A stretch of DNA of 24,398 bases. It comes from a virus (Duplodnaviria; Caudoviricetes). Both the position numbers and the translations under genes were made by a program. Of the stretch, positions 1,316 to 14,668 are shown piece by piece. The notes under the pieces are model-generated. The model was not told the origin of the DNA and ran no database searches. It saw nothing but the letters and a program-made list of their open reading frames with translations. Positions within the stretch are counted from its first letter, which is position 1. Every line of letters starts with the position of its first letter. The stretch is from IMG/VR virus record IMGVR_UViG_3300020044_006406, positions 1 through 24,398 of that record. One strand, written 5' to 3'.

Positions 1316-1389
1316 AAGCAAGGACAGGAATCGAACCTGTAACTTAACATATCTGCTCTGCTTTTTCCATTGTTTTAAGCTACCTTGCT
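1316..1389 (-). ncRNA. tRNA-like RNA with truncated anticodon arm
   Basis: Minus strand: AGCAAGG-TA-GCTT(AAAACAATGGAAA)AAGC-AG-AGCA(GATA)TGTT-AAGTT-ACAGG(TTCGATT)CCTGT-CCTTGCT-T. Perfect 7-bp acceptor stem and T arm; no 7-nt anticodon loop. Confidence 0.8.
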
Positions 1390-3121: not shown

Positions 3122-3141
3122 TTTGACAAATATAATACTTT
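3122..3141 (-). promoter_or_regulatory. Promoter (-7 TATATTTG), repeat copy 2, firing through attC into the cassette genes
   Basis: 20-bp identity with 2188-2207; TTTG upstream at 3153-3156 is a possible -33 element. Confidence 0.75.
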
Positions 3142-3189
3142 AATTTGAATTACAAAATGTTTTCACGTTTAAAATAAATTTTTTTTTAT

Positions 3190-3894
3190 TTATACAAATA
3201 TAAACGGTAACTTTTTCTTTGTTCTTCCATTTATATAATGATTAAATCTATTGTAACTCCAACCTAAACTAAAAGCAGCGTCTTTTGCTGTATCATAATA
3301 AATACCTGTTTCTATATTTAACATTTGTTTTGAAAAACTATTATTTATTCCTTTTTGATTTTCACTTTTTATAATTCTTGTTTCTATACTGTCTTTTCTT
3401 CCAGCTCTTGTTTCTACACTTTTTTTAATAGATTCTGGACTCCTTTTCAATCCTGTTTGAGCAACAGACATTGCTTTTATATGAGATTCACTTAATTTTT
3501 TTCCTGTTAAAGATTCTGATATTCTTTTATTTCTTAACTTAATGTCTTTATAATTAGGAACTATGCCCTTTCTTGATTTTGATATTTTAAACTTACTTTC
3601 TTCACTTATTAATCCGCTTTTATCATTTGTCGTTGTTAGTCTACAATTTAAACCATTATTTAAAACATCATAAAAGTCCTGCCAATATCTTTCACGTTCA
3701 TTTAATAAGTCAATATCACATTCCTCTATAACTTCAAACTTATGATTTTCATATCCATATTTGTTTATAGAATAAAATATTTTAGTTTGATTTATTTTTA
3801 AATATTTATAGTCTGTAAATCTTTTTTTAATATTAATACTTTGTCCTATATAAACTCTGTTACTTGGACTTGTAATCTTATAAATTCCTATCAT
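3190..3894 (-). CDS. GIY-YIG homing endonuclease with NUMOD3 repeats and C-terminal NUMOD1-like HTH
   Basis: MIGIYKITSPSNRVYIGQS...R...E(RE)...N; repeats such as GKKLSESHIKAMS. Start placed at 3894 because upstream codons lie in a leader hairpin. Confidence 0.92.
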   Translation of the reverse strand: MIGIYKITSPSNRVYIGQSINIKKRFTDYKYLKINQTKIFYSINKYGYENHKFEVIEECDIDLLNERERYWQDFYDVLNNGLNCRLTTTNDKSGLISEESKFKISKSRKGIVPNYKDIKLRNKRISESLTGKKLSESHIKAMSVAQTGLKRSPESIKKSVETRAGRKDSIETRIIKSENQKGINNSFSKQMLNIETGIYYDTAKDAAFSLGWSYNRFNHYINGRTKKKLPFIFV

Positions 3895-3900
3895 AATAAT

Positions 3901-3980
3901 AAAAAACCTGCACATCAAAAGGTCGTAGTCTTTATCAATGCAGGAATTTAAAAAAGTTTTAGTTGTAGCTACGACTCTAC
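3901..3980 (-). ncRNA. Kissing-loop leader RNA, copy A
   Basis: GTAG(A-GTCGTAG)CTAC ... CCTGCAT-TGAT-AAAG(A-CTACGAC)CTTT-TGAT-GTGCAGG-TTTTTT; the two loops are exactly complementary. Confidence 0.75.
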
Positions 3981-3985
3981 TGGTG

Positions 3986-4000
3986 CAAATATAATAAATT
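3986..4000 (-). promoter_or_regulatory. Promoter for the GIY-YIG gene and its leader
   Basis: AATTTATTATATTTG (TAnnTTTG), with upstream TTTG at 4009-4012. Confidence 0.75.
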
Positions 4001-4013
4001 ATTTATTTCAAAC

Positions 4014-5240
4014 CTAATAGTCTTTCTTAAAATTTGATAATGTATAGTTTTTTTTGTTCATTACCGACTTGTAAATATTTTTTTCTATTGAGTTATTTCC
4101 TTTAGAAAATATCCAATATATATCGTTTGATGGTCTGTCAGAAGTCGTAAGTCGTGCCCTTGACTGCCAGTAACTTGTAGCACTAAAATCAATATTATAA
4201 TAGACAAGATACTTTGCGTTTTTTAAACTTATACCTTCACGACCTGACACGATTTGTAAAGCTATAACTTTATTTGTTGTATTAAATTCATCTAAATCTT
4301 CTGTCAAGTTTTCTGCTCCATATACTTGACGCAAAGCATTTAATTCTTCTTTAAACTTATAAAATATCCCAATCTTTTCGTTTTCAAACTTCCATTTAAT
4401 AAACTTTGCTTTACTATAATCAATAACCATCGATGTGCCATCCTCAAACTTACAAGTGCCACTTGATAATTGATGTACCTTCTGCATTAATTTAACGCCA
4501 GTATCTCCTAATATCAATCCGCTTTTACCTTGCACAATTTTATCACGTTTTAATCGCTTAATAATATCATAAGTAATATCCTCCATTTTACACTCCAATA
4601 TATGTTCGTTTACTTCTGAAGTAAAACCAGCTTGTGCTTGTGTAAAAGTTATAATATACGGTTGTATTTGTGGCAAAATTTTACTTTCAATACCATCTTT
4701 ATATACCTTTACTTTTGCATAACCTAAATTTTGCTCGGTAACATTTACATAATCATTCGCCCATTTGTAAAAGTTAGTGTAATGTTTGAATGGGGATTTG
4801 TCGGTTACCTGCAATTGATGATACCATTGAGAAAAACTCTCTGGCGTGGCAGTCCCTGATAAAAATATAATTGGTTTTTTATTAAATCTTTTACGGATGT
4901 CCTTTTGGTATTTACTTGCTTTTGGGAATGCAGCCAATCCGTGAGCTTCGTCAATTATAACTACATCAAAATCATTCTCCTCAATTGTATGCAATGATTC
5001 CTTGTTGATGATAGTTAGATTGTATAGATACCCAATGTTATCATAATCGCTTTTGATTGAGGAAAATGCCTTGATTTTAGTTATGAATAGCACACGTTCA
5101 GCACCGAAGTTATAAGCAGTTTCTAAAGCAGTAATTGTTTTACCAGTTCTCACTTCCATCGATAGGTAAACAAATCCACATTCTTTTAGGATTTTGGTAG
5201 CTTTTTTAGCTATTTCGTCTTGATAAGGTCTTAATTCCAT
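4014..5240 (-). CDS. Superfamily 2 (SNF2/DEAH-like) helicase
   Basis: Q motif LRPYQ, Walker A RTGKT, DEAH, LSGT, GREGISL, QSRAR. Confidence 0.92.
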   Translation of the reverse strand: MELRPYQDEIAKKATKILKECGFVYLSMEVRTGKTITALETAYNFGAERVLFITKIKAFSSIKSDYDNIGYLYNLTIINKESLHTIEENDFDVVIIDEAHGLAAFPKASKYQKDIRKRFNKKPIIFLSGTATPESFSQWYHQLQVTDKSPFKHYTNFYKWANDYVNVTEQNLGYAKVKVYKDGIESKILPQIQPYIITFTQAQAGFTSEVNEHILECKMEDITYDIIKRLKRDKIVQGKSGLILGDTGVKLMQKVHQLSSGTCKFEDGTSMVIDYSKAKFIKWKFENEKIGIFYKFKEELNALRQVYGAENLTEDLDEFNTTNKVIALQIVSGREGISLKNAKYLVYYNIDFSATSYWQSRARLTTSDRPSNDIYWIFSKGNNSIEKNIYKSVMNKKNYTLSNFKKDY

Positions 5241-5482: not shown

Positions 5483-5664
5483 AATTTCTCTATTTCTGAT
5501 TTTACATCGTACCAATATTTCTTTCCAGTTTCTTTTATCAATTCACTAACCATTAATAATGCAAATTGTTTTGAAAATTCATTCATAGAAACTCCCCTTG
5601 TGAAGTCCTTAGCCAAGTCATTGCAAGAGTTTACAAGCTCTATTGCTTTTAATCTTGCTTCCAT
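5479..5664 (-). CDS. Hypothetical phage protein
   Basis: 61-aa ORF coupled to neighbours; ends YWYDVKSEIEKL. Confidence 0.7.
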   Translation of the reverse strand: MEARLKAIELVNSCNDLAKDFTRGVSMNEFSKQFALLMVSELIKETGKKYWYDVKSEIEKL

Positions 5665-6152
5665 ATTAATGTTGTTTTATTTTTTCTATTACTTCTGAAA
5701 TAATTTTTTAAAGTATGATAATTAATTCCTAAATCTAATGAAGCTTCTTTTAAAGATTCATAAAGAATATTAGTTTTTGTGTCTAATACTTTTTTACTAA
5801 ATCTAAGTTTTACCCCATCAATTTGTTTATTAGTTATGGTTTTTAATCCATTTTTAAAAGCGTGTTTTATATTTTCGCTTCTTGTACACCATTCTAAATT
5901 AGAAATATTATTGTTTGCTTTATTTCCATCTATGTGATTAACATCTTTTTTACTTTCAATGTTATCTATAAATGTTTCAGCTACAAGTCTATGTACTTTT
6001 ATAGTTTTACTTTTATAGTTTCCTACATATAAACCTACTCTTTGATAACCTTGCTGGTCATAACTAAATTTTAAAAATTTGTTTGTTTTTGAACTAAATA
6101 CTAAACCTTCTTCAGTTACAAAATACTTTGGATATTGTTTTATTGCTTTCAT
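5649..6152 (-). CDS. NUMOD4-HNH homing endonuclease
   Basis: VHRLVAETF, VNHIDGNKANNNISNLEWCTRSENIKH; C-terminal YESLKEAS HTH. Confidence 0.93.
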   Translation of the reverse strand: MKAIKQYPKYFVTEEGLVFSSKTNKFLKFSYDQQGYQRVGLYVGNYKSKTIKVHRLVAETFIDNIESKKDVNHIDGNKANNNISNLEWCTRSENIKHAFKNGLKTITNKQIDGVKLRFSKKVLDTKTNILYESLKEASLDLGINYHTLKNYFRSNRKNKTTLIWKQD

Positions 6153-6156
6153 AATA

Positions 6157-6171
6157 CAAATATAATAAATT
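6157..6171 (-). promoter_or_regulatory. Promoter for the HNH gene
   Basis: AATTTATTATATTTG, identical to 3986-4000, then 4 nt and ATG; upstream TTTG at 6185-6188. Confidence 0.75.
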
Positions 6172-6615: not shown

Positions 6616-8934
6616 TTAAAATGCTAAATCGTTATCTTCTTCTTCTACTTCTCCAATCATAAACCATTTCATTCCGTTGCTATTGCCATCTGTATATTTC
6701 AAATCTTTGAACTGACAATATTTCTGTATGAATATTTGGAATCGTTTATGTGTTAATTTGAATTGAGCGAAATCGGGATAATCTCTTTTGAAATTATCTA
6801 AATATATTTGCTTATCTAATCGTATTCCCATCGGTAGGTTTTCGCTATCCATTGTCCATTCGTTAAACTCAGGAGATGTACTTGCTATAAATCTACGTAG
6901 TTGGGTATTCTTACTATTTTGTGCAATAAGACCAAAGGTAAAGTAATCTTGTAAACATTCAACCATATAATTGTCAAATCTATGGAAATCTTCCAATTCC
7001 CAATCATCAAACAATTGCCTTCCGAAATCCTGCTCAGGAGTTAGGTTTTTGCCATAGAATTGAGCAATCTCTAATTCGTGTCTTCTACGGTCTTGCGAGT
7101 GTCCATCTCCTTTGATTGCATAATTGGTTGATATAATTACCTTTGGAGATTCGTGAACATTTAACTTAATCGCATCCTTATTCTTCTTCTCCAGCGTAAT
7201 CCCCTCTGTAATTAAGCTAAAATTATTTTCAAAGTCAAATCCTTTTTTTACATCATCAAACACAAGAACTTTGGTTTCTAACGATATGGTCTGATATGCA
7301 AATGATTTCTTATTATCGTATTGCTTACCATCTATAATATCTGTTCTTCTAATTTGACCGATGCCTTGTACAAACAATCCTTTTCCAGTTCCTCCTTCGG
7401 GAGATTCAGATATAATTTCATCATTAAGGATTACAGCTTTGTTTTGAGAACGATTTTTATAATTCAATAGTAAGTAACCTATCGTGCATTTCATTGCGGT
7501 AGAATCCTCGTGGGATATGTTCTCTATGAATTTCTGATAGTCATTGTCAGTTGTGTTTGTTTTTACCCAATTACGTTCTAATATTTGACTTTCCCATATA
7601 TACTCATCCATCTCAAAATATTCCTTCAATTCTGTTCCTGTTTGTGTTACTTTTAAAACACCATTTGAGAACGGAATATAACTATAATCTTTGGAATCCT
7701 TCAGCATCATTAAGTCGATAGTTTCAAGCATTATCAAGTATTGCTCCGTAAACAAGTTATGATAGGTTGAGCAGTAATTAAAAACATCAATATGCTTTCC
7801 TTGAAGTAGGTAGGTAAGAACAAAATCCTTAATCCTTGATATAGACGACTCCTTTACTTTATTTTCGCTTATGAATACAAACATCGGTTTGTCGCTACCA
7901 TTTGGGTAGTGCTTAGCAAATCCTTTTTCCTCCAAAAACATTTTATATTTAAGGGAATCAATCTTTACATTGTCCTTTTTATCCAAGAACCAAAAGTTAG
8001 AGTTTTCACTTACTTCTTTCAAGTCATCAAACGTACTCTCATCGATATTGTGGATTTTCATTACTTCTGCTTTGCCCCGATGCAAGTCCAATTTAATTCT
8101 GTCTATTTTCTGATAATCCTCGAAGTATTTAGAATCGAATTGTCTTTTACGGTAGGCAGATTTAATTGTGTTCTTTGCTTCTTGCTCTGAAAAATCTCCA
8201 ATGATTACGTTATTTATAATATATCCTTCGGCAGTATACTGACTGATTCCGTACTCACAAAACGCTCCAGCTATATCGAAGACAAATGCGTTACGCTCTC
8301 CATCATTAAATCCTTTACCCCAATTGAATTTCATTATCTTATCAATGATTTTATCCTCATCACCAATTGGAACTAATGGCACACGTTCTGAAATTGTAAA
8401 CCCTTCATCAATTAGTTTTGCATCAAACATTTCAGCATCGTAATTAACATAGATATTCGGGTCGTAAGATTCAAAACAAACTCTGTCTACATTTGAATTA
8501 GCAATGTCAAAATAATCAAAATCAAATTTCTTCTGAAATGCTTTGAAGTATTTAGGATGAGTTTCCTTTGTAGAAACTGGGATTTTTACAACTCCTTTTA
8601 TACCATTCCCTGAAGGAGAAATAAACAATAACACGAAGTGTGGATTTTGCTTCAATAATTCAAAATGTTCGTTAATAACGTCATTATTGGGGTATTTGTC
8701 GTAATCTACAACCATTAGTCCTGAATGAGTAATCAATCCATTTGAATTTCTTTCGCTAAACTCTCCTGCAAATAAGATACAAGGTAGTTGTTTTTTTAAA
8801 TCCTCTCCATTGCGGATGCGTTCGATTAGGTCTTTACTTTTACCTTCTTTTATTCGTGCTACAACTTTTTCGATTGGAACAATGAATGGAACTTCTTTTG
8901 ATTTTAATAAATCTTTGAATACTGATATTTTCAT
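6616..8934 (-). CDS. Primase-helicase (BT4734/VirE-N-like primase domain, PriCT, P-loop helicase)
   Basis: LKKQLP..F.G.F..R, HSGLMVVDYD, FISPSGNGIK, RVCFESYDP; GERN (PriCT); Walker A GGTGKG, Walker B VLVFDD, ISTN. Confidence 0.88.
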   Translation of the reverse strand: MKISVFKDLLKSKEVPFIVPIEKVVARIKEGKSKDLIERIRNGEDLKKQLPCILFAGEFSERNSNGLITHSGLMVVDYDKYPNNDVINEHFELLKQNPHFVLLFISPSGNGIKGVVKIPVSTKETHPKYFKAFQKKFDFDYFDIANSNVDRVCFESYDPNIYVNYDAEMFDAKLIDEGFTISERVPLVPIGDEDKIIDKIMKFNWGKGFNDGERNAFVFDIAGAFCEYGISQYTAEGYIINNVIIGDFSEQEAKNTIKSAYRKRQFDSKYFEDYQKIDRIKLDLHRGKAEVMKIHNIDESTFDDLKEVSENSNFWFLDKKDNVKIDSLKYKMFLEEKGFAKHYPNGSDKPMFVFISENKVKESSISRIKDFVLTYLLQGKHIDVFNYCSTYHNLFTEQYLIMLETIDLMMLKDSKDYSYIPFSNGVLKVTQTGTELKEYFEMDEYIWESQILERNWVKTNTTDNDYQKFIENISHEDSTAMKCTIGYLLLNYKNRSQNKAVILNDEIISESPEGGTGKGLFVQGIGQIRRTDIIDGKQYDNKKSFAYQTISLETKVLVFDDVKKGFDFENNFSLITEGITLEKKNKDAIKLNVHESPKVIISTNYAIKGDGHSQDRRRHELEIAQFYGKNLTPEQDFGRQLFDDWELEDFHRFDNYMVECLQDYFTFGLIAQNSKNTQLRRFIASTSPEFNEWTMDSENLPMGIRLDKQIYLDNFKRDYPDFAQFKLTHKRFQIFIQKYCQFKDLKYTDGNSNGMKWFMIGEVEEEDNDLAF

Positions 8935-9815
8935 TATTGTATATTTTTAAATATATGTGCAATTACATCAACAGTCCAAGAGTTCCCCAACGCTTCCAAT
9001 CTTTTATTTTTAGATATTATAGAAGTGTAATTGTCAGGTAATGTTTGACATCTTTCCGCTTCTACTGGATGTAATCTTCTGTATATATCTTTTTCATAAT
9101 CTATTAATATGTTTAATTTATTAGAAGGATTAGCTTTTGGTAATGTGCAAATTTTACCTTCTTTGTAATAAGCTCTATCTTGTTGCGACCAGTACTGTTT
9201 TCCACTTAAATCCCATTTTACATAGTTTTTAGTTTTCTTTTTAGTGTTTACAATCCTAATGTCAGTAAAGATAGAATAGGTATCATCATATATAATATCT
9301 TTTACTAATATACCTTTATCGATAGGTTGTTCTATACTTTCTATATTAGTCCAATAGTATCTTAACCTATTTTGAGCAGAAACTAATGCACTATTTATAA
9401 TTATTGGTTTAACTTCTAAATGCTCTGAAATGACATCTTGATACTCTTGTTTCATTCTGACATTTTCTAACAATAATTTTACATTTGGATTTAAAGATTT
9501 AATATGTTTTAATATATCTGAAAACTCAAAAAACAATTTACTTCTTTCATCTTCAAAATTTAATTGTTTACCTGCAAAGCTAAATCCCTGACACGGACTT
9601 CCTCCCATAACTAAATCAATAGTACTAAAATCAATATCCCATTCTTTCCAATTTGTAACACTACCTAACTGAATAGTATTAGGATAGTTTTTCATTGTTA
9701 CTTGTATAGCATATTTATCTATCTCACTTGCGTAGTAATTATCTACTTTAATTCTAGCTCTCTCTAAAGCTACTTGACCTGCCGATATTCCATCGAATAA
9801 ACTTAATACATTCAT
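8934..9815 (-). CDS. DNA (cytosine-5)-methyltransferase
   Basis: Motif I LSLFDGISAG, IV GGSPCQ, VI LLENV, VIII QNRLR, X LGNSW. Confidence 0.95.
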   Translation of the reverse strand: MNVLSLFDGISAGQVALERARIKVDNYYASEIDKYAIQVTMKNYPNTIQLGSVTNWKEWDIDFSTIDLVMGGSPCQGFSFAGKQLNFEDERSKLFFEFSDILKHIKSLNPNVKLLLENVRMKQEYQDVISEHLEVKPIIINSALVSAQNRLRYYWTNIESIEQPIDKGILVKDIIYDDTYSIFTDIRIVNTKKKTKNYVKWDLSGKQYWSQQDRAYYKEGKICTLPKANPSNKLNILIDYEKDIYRRLHPVEAERCQTLPDNYTSIISKNKRLEALGNSWTVDVIAHIFKNIQ

Positions 9816-9829
9816 ATTGTTATAATTTA

Positions 9830-9920
9830 AAGAGCCTTAAATCATTGCCATCCACTGCAAATCATTAAGGCTCTTATGGTTTTTACACCTAATTTCTTAA
9901 AGTATGTGGATGTTATACTT
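9830..9920 (-). ncRNA. Kissing-loop leader RNA, copy B
   Basis: AAGTAT(AA-CATCCAC)ATACTT ... AAGAGCCTTAA-TGAT-TTGC(A-GTGGATG)GCAA-TGAT-TTAAGGCTCTT; the two loops are exactly complementary. Confidence 0.75.
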
Positions 9921-10041
9921 ATATGTGAGTCGTACGACTTACAATTTAATGTTAGATAAACCCCATTTTTTAGGGTCTTTCTTACCACGAATGGTAATGT
10001 TCATTAACAATGAACAGCTGAAAAAAATGAACACATTGGTT

Positions 10042-10069
10042 AAAAAACCCCCGAATTTCAGTTCAGGGG
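10042..10069 (-). terminator. Intrinsic terminator
   Basis: CCCCTGAA(CTGAAA)TTCGGGGG followed by TTTTTT on the minus strand. Confidence 0.85.
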
Positions 10070-10246
10070 AATTAAGTAACGTAAGAAAGCACCAACAAAC
10101 GTACGTTATAAAATGTTAGCCTTTCCCACCGTTCTTACTAACTCGCTAATTAACGCTTCATTTTTTAGCTCCCGATACCACAATCCTGTAAAGTGGATTT
10201 GTATTCCCTTTAGTTTTCTTTACTTTCTAAAGCCAGTTACTTTATG

Positions 10247-13243: not shown

Positions 13244-13920
13244 TACTTCTGCAATTTGCTATTTATCTTTTCAATATACGCTTCCTTAATAGCAATAGCT
13301 TCTTCCAATCTCTCTTTAATAAGAGCAATCATTTCCTCATCTCTTTTTACTTCTATTGTGTGATGAAATTCCTCACCATCAATGATGCAATAGTTAAAGA
13401 AATATGCCTTATCAGAATTACTACATAACATTTGCATCTGCATTTGAGCATAATATTCCTTATCGATATTCTCATCAGCTACAATCTTAAAGAACTTTGT
13501 TGCTCTTGGACACTTGATTTCAAGTATCGCATCAGAACCTACAACTCCATCGGGAGATGCTCCAGCGTGTTTTCCATAAGGAAACATAAATGATTCAGTT
13601 GCTTCGGGATGCATCTCTTGGAATTTAGCAAAGGCTAATGGCTCTAACTCAACTCCACGTTGCATATCTGCACCACGATAAGAATCTTCAACCTGACCAT
13701 ACAATTCCTCAATTGCTTTTTCAATAGCGTAAGTCTTTCCTGTTTCTCCCAATCCACGAACTCCTAAAAGTTTATGGATTTCCGATGCCGTGAATTTACC
13801 GTATCTTTCTTTAAACCACTCTTTGCTACGCTGGGTTGCCTCGTAGGCATTGGTTGCCTCGTTGGTATGGTTCATTGTGTAGTATTCGCTATACTCTAAT
13901 GCTTGGTGTCTATTGCTCAT
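13243..13920 (-). CDS. YqaJ/lambda-exonuclease family recombination nuclease
   Basis: QRSKEWFKERYGKFTASE, MQRGVELEP, GASPDG, LEIKCP, YYAQMQMQM; ATG at 13920 overlaps the upstream stop. Confidence 0.93.
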   Translation of the reverse strand: MSNRHQALEYSEYYTMNHTNEATNAYEATQRSKEWFKERYGKFTASEIHKLLGVRGLGETGKTYAIEKAIEELYGQVEDSYRGADMQRGVELEPLAFAKFQEMHPEATESFMFPYGKHAGASPDGVVGSDAILEIKCPRATKFFKIVADENIDKEYYAQMQMQMLCSNSDKAYFFNYCIIDGEEFHHTIEVKRDEEMIALIKERLEEAIAIKEAYIEKINSKLQK

Positions 13921-14078
13921 AATGTTTTTAATTTCCAAATTCCTACTAAATTACTTGCGTGTCTTTTTATTGGTATTCTAAATCTATATTGACCTATTTG
14001 GTTTAAACCGATAAAGTTATATACTTCTATAAAATCTCCAATTCCAATTGTCGGTAAAACTTTATATCCTTCTTTCAT
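13917..14078 (-). CDS. Small hypothetical protein (53 aa)
   Basis: Manual translation MKEGYKVLPTIGIGDFIEVYNFIGLNQIGQYRFRIPIKRHASNLVGIWKLKTL*; ATGA overlaps at both ends. Confidence 0.65.
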   Translation of the reverse strand: MKEGYKVLPTIGIGDFIEVYNFIGLNQIGQYRFRIPIKRHASNLVGIWKLKTL

Positions 14079-14668
14079 TTGTTTAAATGTATTAAATATG
14101 ATTTATAAGCTAAATATACTGCTTCAATTTGTTTAAATTCATCTGTATTTCTTTTTGTTTCGTAAATTTTATCTGATTCAAAGAATAAATCCCATTCTTC
14201 TATTGTTTTTATTTTACAACCAATTTTGATGTTATTATCTATAATTGAATGACTCCATTTACAAAAAATTGGTAAATCGGCTGAACGTAAATTGGCTGAA
14301 CTTAAATCGGCTGAACGTAAATTGGCTGAACGTAAATCGGCTGAATATAAATTGGCTGAACTTAAATCGGCTGAATATAAATTGGCTGAACGTAAATCGG
14401 CTGAACTTAAATCGGCTAAATATAAATTGGCTGAATATAAATTGGCTGAATATAAATTGGCTGAACGTAAATCGGCTGAACGTAAATTGGCTGAACGTAA
14501 ATCGGCTGAACGTAAATTGGCTGAACGTAAATTGGCTGAACGTAAATCGGCTGAACGTAAAGAAACTTTTTCTTTTACAGCTTTTTCAACTGTTTTTTTA
14601 ATTGTATTATTTTCACACTCATATTCAAAAATTAACTCTCCAAATATTGATTTTATTTCTATTTTCAT
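14075..14668 (-). CDS. Pentapeptide repeat protein
   Basis: 19 tandem A(D/N)L(R/Y/S)S units; C-terminal IKIGC...EEW domain. Confidence 0.93.
   Translation of the reverse strand: MKIEIKSIFGELIFEYECENNTIKKTVEKAVKEKVSLRSADLRSANLRSANLRSADLRSANLRSADLRSANLYSANLYSANLYLADLSSADLRSANLYSADLSSANLYSADLRSANLRSADLSSANLRSADLPIFCKWSHSIIDNNIKIGCKIKTIEEWDLFFESDKIYETKRNTDEFKQIEAVYLAYKSYLIHLNK
14273..14560. repeat. 15-bp tandem repeat x19 (coding)
   Basis: Minus-strand unit TTA-(CGT/TAT/AGT)-TCA-GCC-(G/A)AT. Confidence 0.95.

Follow-up and report, generated by a model that had tools for sequence, protein, structure and literature searches.

The locus raises the question of whether the short stretch in front of a phage GIY-YIG endonuclease gene is a structured regulatory RNA and, if so, how it could act. 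The window, that is, the whole stretch of DNA analyzed (24,398 nt, IMG/VR record IMGVR_UViG_3300020044_006406, Caudoviricetes), is the sole contig of its record and carries replication genes on the minus strand (YqaJ recombinase, primase-like protein, C5 methylase, SNF2 helicase, HNH and GIY-YIG nucleases, VRR-NUC) and terminase and structural genes on the plus strand. Its host probably belongs to the Flavobacteria, as suggested by the blastn matches of the leader considered first (copy A; of the 40 records matched, 34 of Flavobacterium and 4 of Polaribacter phages align over most of the leader) and by promoter boxes of the form TAnnTTTG, which we take to be the Bacteroidota -7 consensus.

Two leaders in the window

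Copy A consists of the following elements.

3986-3993, minus: -7 promoter box TATATTTG of the cassette, presumably of the Bacteroidota type judging by the same consensus
3965-3980, minus: hairpin P1, 4-bp stem (GTAG 3980-3977, CTAC 3968-3965; all four pairs with both-side changes), loop A + GTCGTAG (3976-3969; kissing strand 3975-3969)
3945-3964, minus: A/U-rich linker of 20 nt, A well kept at linker positions 5, 7 and 8
3907-3944, minus: hairpin P2, 7-bp terminator-type stem, UGAU/UGAU internal loop, 4-bp stem and loop A + CTACGAC, in the order CCTGCAT (3944-3938), TGAT, AAAG, A + CTACGAC (3929-3922; kissing strand 3928-3922), CTTT, TGAT, GTGCAGG (3913-3907)
3901-3906, minus: U-run after P2 (T6), predicted termination site

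A letter-by-letter check of the minus strand confirmed both the layout given in the initial annotation and the exact complementarity of the two 7-nt loops. Transcription would start 4-6 nt past the promoter box, at the foot of P1, and the GIY-YIG start codon (ATG at 3894) lies 12 nt past the P2 stem. A descriptor search found two sites in the window, copy A and a second leader (copy B), and none in 300 dinucleotide-preserving shuffles. Neither copy was listed by a sigma-70 promoter/terminator scan, as expected given the promoter type and the large loop. A TTTG at 4012-4009 was considered as the -33 element; it is only 15 nt from the -7 box, below the usual spacing, and is not claimed.

Copy A lies between a helicase gene and the endonuclease gene, with the displaced end of the former behind the latter.

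4014-5240, minus: SNF2-type helicase gene, its last codons supplied by the cassette
3190-3894, minus: GIY-YIG homing endonuclease gene, 234 aa (Pfam PF01541, E 4e-6)
3150-3173, minus: displaced original 3' end of the helicase gene, behind the cassette; the same sequence ends the helicase in empty-site relatives
3127-3134, minus: native promoter box of the downstream phage genes, kept behind the cassette

Among 31 close helicase relatives with enough downstream DNA, the leader was found in five, all of which also have an endonuclease (three GIY-YIG, two NUMOD4-HNH); four had a GIY-YIG gene without the leader, and 22 had neither. Where the site is filled, the helicase is closed by new codons, while its original last codons are found, together with the native promoter, behind the nuclease (window 3173-3127); therefore, promoter, leader and nuclease constitute one insertion, and copy A consequently governs the nuclease alone. 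At one site, the same leader is followed by one or another unrelated endonuclease, and a contig from run X2 replaces window positions 3187-3901. Homing endonucleases have likely captured one leader family and carry it as cargo. Behind the native promoter in the window (approximately 3113-3020) there is also an element headed by ATAACG, which in four loci (among L102, L109, L122, L187, L031, and L033 listed) directly follows family-A leaders and replaces the start codon.

Copy B precedes the primase region of the window.

9900-9920, minus: hairpin P1, 6-bp stem, loop AA + CATCCAC (9912-9906)
9878-9889, minus: small 3-bp hairpin inside the linker
9830-9875, minus: hairpin P2, 11-bp stem, UGAU/UGAU, 4 bp, loop A + GTGGATG (9855-9849), followed by a weak U-run
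8934-9815, minus: C5 DNA methyltransferase gene (PF00145), between leader B and the primase gene
6616-8934, minus: primase-like gene (PriCT_1, BT4734-like N, DUF5906), the conserved partner of family B

The claim that copy B repeats the layout of copy A holds for P2, but P1 (6-bp stem, AA loop) and the extra linker hairpin differ, the TAnnTTTG promoter is absent directly upstream, and the U-run is weak. The two copies share an architecture and represent two families, which carry the GUGG/GUCG strand in opposite loops. As they belong to separate families with this strand exchanged, the difference between them, initially taken as within-genome covariation, is weaker evidence than the covariation inside each family. 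Cross-pairing between the loops of A and B is indeed negligible (-1.5 and +0.5 kcal/mol vs. -8.5 and -9.1 kcal/mol for their own kisses), as supposed initially; however, distinct codes are not required, as one of eight multi-leader contigs has the same code twice, the codes differing within the other seven.

The site of family B is before the primase gene, often with methylase genes intervening; in L016, L204, L417, and L441 the leader is directly 5' of the primase gene. Across the 13 rows of the family-B alignment, pairing reaches 98%, and the kiss contains one compensated change. In distant members, a promoter box lies immediately 5' of the leader and the U-run is good, whereas in copy B and its close kin the adjacent promoter is lost, as is most of the U-run, and a compensated kiss is kept. 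The copy-B pattern with an exact UGAU/UGAU gave one real match among 12 distinct contexts, so this exact loop is not what family B keeps. Upstream of leader B, between it and the PHROG-6706 gene, positions 9924-10240 (minus) form a mosaic of short hairpin modules, variably present in close relatives, which includes a near-palindrome at 9924-9943 and a terminator at 10069-10048.

Homologs, covariation and downstream genes

Homologs with the compensatory loop-loop changes expected from the postulated kiss were found: 150 of 152 pooled distinct promoter-plus-hairpin homologs of family A have a perfect 7-pair kiss, written in ten letter codes. A viral scan in which loop 2 was left free yielded 120 loci in 100 distinct contexts; the exact loop-2 complement occurred 37-41 nt upstream in 84 of these, in seven codes, one had a G-U pair, and 15, lacking both the outer stem and a partner, were chance matches. 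When a 3-bp inner stem was sought, 58 of the 63 contexts obtained had the hairpin, all 58 with the partner, while in metagenomes the hairpin was present in 31 of 108 contexts and the partner in 30 of those 31; the patterns of these two scans fixed five loop-2 positions, and loop 1 was part of no pattern. On a rough tree of 134 leaders built with the kissing columns omitted, the code changed at least 36 times, compared with a mean of 84 for shuffled labels.

In an alignment of 44 rows, drawn from leaders that kiss, 18 of 22 pairs showed both-side changes, and all four helices covaried. The kissing helix was 100% paired in these rows, with four of its seven pairs changed on both sides (slid controls, 31-50% paired), and it was the only covarying alternative contact. 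Four of the seven kiss positions are nearly fixed in family A, and no duplex extends beyond the seven pairs, the flanks being unpaired in the family-A alignment. G-U pairs and GA loops are consistent with the minus strand only. In one leader, L570, the P1 loop is inverted between the stem arms, so that both loops read alike and no kiss is possible; this may reflect a natural off-state, inversion of the hairpin or faulty assembly.

The scan of cellular genomes (about three quarters of the collection, 4-bp subtype only) gave three real matches in 116 contexts, with the same genes as in phage contigs and two of them on 2-7 kb MAG contigs; the three look phage-derived. The family-A model matched none of 151 genomes from the family of Paucihalobacter record G001, in a weak search with 29 candidates scored per genome, and blastn with a leader of the 3-bp subtype matched no cultured phage.

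A census of 134 distinct family-A leaders revealed a rather rigid layout. The promoter box is present in all 134, 9-11 nt before the kissing segment in 127; loop 1 and the internal loop are 37-41 nt apart. In either subtype (3+4+8 or 4+4+7), P2 is 15 steps long; its pairing stops there in 128 of 134 leaders, and T follows immediately in 132. All leaders have 5-8 T within 8 nt past the stem, a count to be read with the preselection of the 3-bp subset on GGTTTT. The ATG is 9-12 nt past the stem in 109 of 129 leaders, and 5 of the 134 have no ATG nearby. The base 5' of loop 1 is A in 97 leaders, U in 32 and G in 5. An exact UGAU/UGAU internal loop occurs in 98 of 134; the others vary at the flanks and keep two GA pairs, the resulting NGAN/NGAN, with probable tandem G.A/A.G geometry, having been required by the search patterns and left free in no scan. 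One relative has AGUA/GAA at this position, presumably a loop-E-type motif.

Homing endonucleases of unrelated folds were found in 96 of the 128 reading frames behind family-A leaders: 94 of HNH, GIY-YIG or T5orf172 type, according to profiles seeded on Pfam-confirmed members, and two more assigned to HNH or endonuclease VII by PHROGs. The other frames include eight helicases, three primase/helicases, one methylase and, in Polaribacter phage P12002L, an O-like initiator, with some of the helicase, primase and other assignments made by an N-terminus common to a tested member. The commonest non-nuclease product is a protein of 78-79 aa behind ten leaders (e.g., L090:1547-1783), with no Pfam or PHROG match, which is a candidate regulator of the leader. 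In L018 (11347-12120), a family-A leader precedes a GIY-YIG gene split into two pieces of 94 and 150 aa, and the contig has the same code a second time, upstream of the helicase gene.

The leader is common before endonuclease genes, but it is not required. Of 50 endonuclease genes in neighbor-chosen loci, 20 have the leader, 10 start right at the promoter, and 20 scored as neither, although at least one of the latter has a kiss according to the census of promoter-proximal terminators described below. NUMOD4-HNH genes without the kissing leader are preceded by another conserved sequence [L043:14850-14956 (+), L409:27920-28030 (+), L409:13080-13183 (+), L055, L052], apparently an H-type pseudoknot; Rfam at the gathering score gave no match to it in L043 or L409.

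The two families belong to a wider class. The cultured phage hattifnatt9-1, with Flavobacterium sp. LMO9 as host, carries three unrelated leaders; one precedes its helicase gene, another a NUMOD4-HNH gene, and the primase operon begins with the third. They lie at approximately 9372-9458, 13312-13387 and 14348-14441 of MN812207.1. With a sequence-free descriptor, 19 matches (two of them doubtful) were obtained at 5,696 promoter-like sites and none in 17,088 shuffles, and an imperfect descriptor flagged 21 of 68 upstream regions in relatives of the hattifnatt helicase. When promoter-proximal terminators were defined without regard to the kiss, 39 of 51 distinct leaders had an apical loop able to form at least seven contiguous pairs with the 5' region, as opposed to 0.7% in the shuffled control; this set, drawn from the helicase and primase neighborhoods, the window and two cultured phages chosen by way of copy A, represents related phages rather than all phages. 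Almost no nucleotide is common to different families: the shape is kept and the sequence is not. Kiss length (7-10) and loop sizes vary widely, internal loops are GA-rich, pyrimidine-rich or absent, and the start codon is 7-35 nt from the stem. The UGAU/UGAU loop, regarded initially as the defining element, has thus lost this role, being exact in only part of family A, variable in family B and replaced by other internal loops, or by none, elsewhere.

Comparison with known RNA elements

The suggestion that the leader belongs to no named family was borne out by the Rfam covariance searches. Rfam 15 gave no match over either copy in the window at E<=5, only below-threshold terminator-type matches in 19 homolog loci at the same threshold, and no match at the gathering score in two cultured genomes and two loci. 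The leader is a real, uncatalogued phage RNA class, apparently a variant of the attenuator kind, whose proposed mechanism is deduced from its architecture.

Two structural motifs and one RNA class were considered and set aside. A k-turn has a 3-nt bulge before its GA pairs, and SECIS elements have a long upper helix with apical adenines; the leader has tandem G.A pairs, but in a symmetric 4x4 loop and under an upper helix of 3-4 bp. The RNAs of type III toxin-antitoxin systems are tandem repeats before one cognate endoribonuclease, whereas the leader is a single unit with unrelated DNase folds and replication genes downstream. Like HK022 put and lambda boxB, the leader is an RNA immediately downstream of an early phage promoter and may govern read-through; unlike them, its second hairpin is a terminator, 20 nt from the first, and a factor or a processive effect is hypothetical here.

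Phage systems built of a promoter, a short RNA and a terminator include P4 CI RNA, P1 c4, and IsrK of prophage Gifsy-1. In the last of these, the short form acts on the read-through form (PMC4825925); a phage promoter, a short structured RNA, a terminator and a harmful or replication gene reached by read-through are common to both systems, but the leader has two complementary loops in one 80-nt unit and no sequence or Rfam match to IsrK, and its action in trans is hypothetical.

The closest layout is that of the guanidine-IV riboswitch, where the kiss opposes terminator closure (PMC11611296). In both RNAs, a 5' hairpin loop kisses the apical loop of the terminator, with a linker, a U-run and a gene behind. 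The differences are that the leader has no Rfam match and no aptamer or pocket conserved across families, precedes nucleases, helicases and primases rather than guanidine exporters, and diversifies its codes, with several unrelated copies per genome.

According to the review PMC2988022, homing endonucleases of the T4 type are damped by ribosome-site hairpins and weak terminators; the review argues that stray cuts are limited when expression is kept low and timed to replication. In both cases, RNA structure damps GIY-YIG and HNH genes of the free-standing type; the T4-type hairpins are single and gene-specific, with a late-promoter bypass, whereas the leader is a covarying pseudoknot common to unrelated nuclease folds and mobile with them. 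The PeSL of T4-like phages, a terminator/promoter composite (PMC4122927), is likewise a repeated promoter plus stem-loop unit at gene-exchange points; in the leader, unlike PeSL, the promoter precedes the terminator, a kiss is present, and copies in one genome mostly differ.

Full-text literature contained no description of the leader, most subscription papers being outside the searched text. The words "kissing," "Bacteroid," and "endonuclease" are absent from main-text passages of PMC5737381, and the motif strings do not occur in four supplementary files of PMC10690425, among whose more than 10,000 viral candidates the leader may be an unnamed entry.

Proposed attenuation mechanism and alternative readings

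The initial proposal of a cis-regulatory RNA for DNA-acting enzymes agrees with the conserved leader, the covarying kiss and the gene context, although neither its definition by UGAU nor a translational switch by base pairing was supported; of the two mechanisms named at that time, attenuator and translational switch, the former is the better one. We give roughly even chances to a transcription attenuator in which the loop-loop kiss competes with terminator closure and so sets read-through, with no ligand pocket visible. The host polymerase would start at the foot of P1, which would fold first and wait approximately 40 nt for loop 2. If loop 2 kissed loop 1 first, the 5' arm of P2 would be held in a closed ring, the last terminator pairs would be strained, and the polymerase would pass the U-run; if P2 zipped first, an RNA of about 80 nt would be released. 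The GA-rich internal loop might serve as the stalling point between these outcomes, and polymerase speed, Mg2+ or a phage protein might shift the balance. In phages, such gates would stand before operons for helicases, primases and initiators, and a captured gate would hold endonuclease expression low and in step with the replication genes.

Several observations bear on the attenuator. A promoter, a terminator-type hairpin with a U-run and a gene lacking its own promoter are all found in copy A and are weak in copy B. In the wider class, 7-25 nt separate such terminators from genes likely essential for replication, which leaves no space for a separate promoter, so read-through must occur. No conserved nested rival helix over the start codon was found in 129 family-A leaders, which leaves the kiss as the sole conserved contact able to act on the terminator. 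The terminator stem is slightly weaker in real than in control transcripts (0.64 vs. 0.75). The covariation fits the kiss and the full terminator equally well whether they are exclusive or coexist. By our own estimate, the 20-nt linker of family A could span both helices (about 70 Å needed, about 125 Å available), while in three leaders a linker of 13 nt accompanies a P2 of 19-20 steps and could not, on a rough calculation, reach across the two helices in an end-to-end stack. Linker and P2 lengths are correlated with rho -0.48 in 38 rows, but with families collapsed by hand the correlation is not significant (rho -0.29, p 0.19, n 22). Against the attenuator count the 30 of 50 endonuclease genes scored as lacking the leader, and a pure terminator model poorly explains the promoterless B clade, which keeps a compensated kiss with a poor U-run.

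If the kissed fold and the terminator coexist, the compact shape could be bound by an antitermination protein of the phage or host, or it could itself contact the polymerase, lambda N/boxB and HK022 put being working models for such folds. Conservation of shape without sequence, the several unrelated leaders per genome at the head of replication operons, and, in family A, the 15-step P2, GA pairs, linker adenines and four fixed kiss positions, which suit a folded surface, speak for this reading, and if it were true, one early factor would open all leaders whatever their letters. Nevertheless, we regard it as possible but rather unlikely, as internal loops, kiss length and loop sizes differ so widely between families, and no antiterminator-like protein was found among the 25 window proteins scanned in this partial genome (17 + 8 with some overlap, one in neither library). 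Regulation after transcription, by which the fold would protect the 5' end or tune ribosome loading about 11 nt from the stem, with the U-run as part of the initiation region, fits the narrow stem-to-ATG distance in most of family A, the retention of the fold in copy B without a good U-run, the ability of copy A alone to refold over its own AUG and the frequent ribosome-site hairpin control of T4-type endonucleases (PMC2988022). It is made improbable by start-codon pairing at the control level (0.51 vs. 0.53 in 129 leaders), which shows no conserved sequestration, by the broader stem-to-start range of the wider class, by the leaders without a nearby ATG, and by the G-C-rich stem bases followed by U-runs, which look like terminators.

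The frequent code changes, the different codes in most multi-leader contigs and the promoter-RNA-terminator-gene order seen in IsrK (PMC4825925) would be expected if the released RNA of about 80 nt acted in trans on nascent leaders of the same code, as a timer, copy control or exclusion between related phages. We are doubtful of such action: a cis partner 40 nt away should win over a trans partner, one contig has the same code twice, and four hardly varying positions out of seven leave limited specificity. A composite of cis and trans steps is held to be similarly unlikely; it would be a protein-free replication timer with an identity code, in which kissing first opens the terminator, and the released short RNAs accumulate, capture waiting loops of the same code and close the replication operons, the gate having been taken over by endonucleases of at least four unrelated folds for co-expression with replication genes. 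A small-molecule or ion riboswitch could account for the two-hairpin, kiss-on-terminator layout held in common with guanidine-IV and for the few fixed nucleotides in family A; yet with almost no nucleotide common to families, downstream genes without a common metabolite and no matching Rfam riboswitch model, we consider it very improbable. Finally, a PeSL-like DNA repeat that shuffles genes by recombination, its folding being incidental, would explain the alternation of unrelated endonucleases at one site and the replacement in the X2 contig, but it leaves the compensated loop-loop pairing, one-strand G-U pairs and GA loops unexplained and has hardly any probability; gene shuffling at the leader may be a side effect.

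The order of gene expression in Bacteroidota phages is little known, and the leader class points to a general layer of control missed by catalogues. It could be tested at once, as cultured Flavobacterium and Polaribacter phages carry the leader, one phage having three versions. Compact gates whose 7-letter codes can be exchanged would also make useful parts in the genetics of Bacteroidota.

Elsewhere in the window, the promoter boxes at 6164, 2200, and 11876 (minus) stop 4-5 nt short of an ATG and suggest leaderless mRNAs, including one for the HNH gene 5649-6152. A tRNA-like gene was found at 1316-1389 (minus; Rfam RF00005, 38 bits, local gaps), and the early region contains a pentapeptide-repeat gene (14075-14668, minus).
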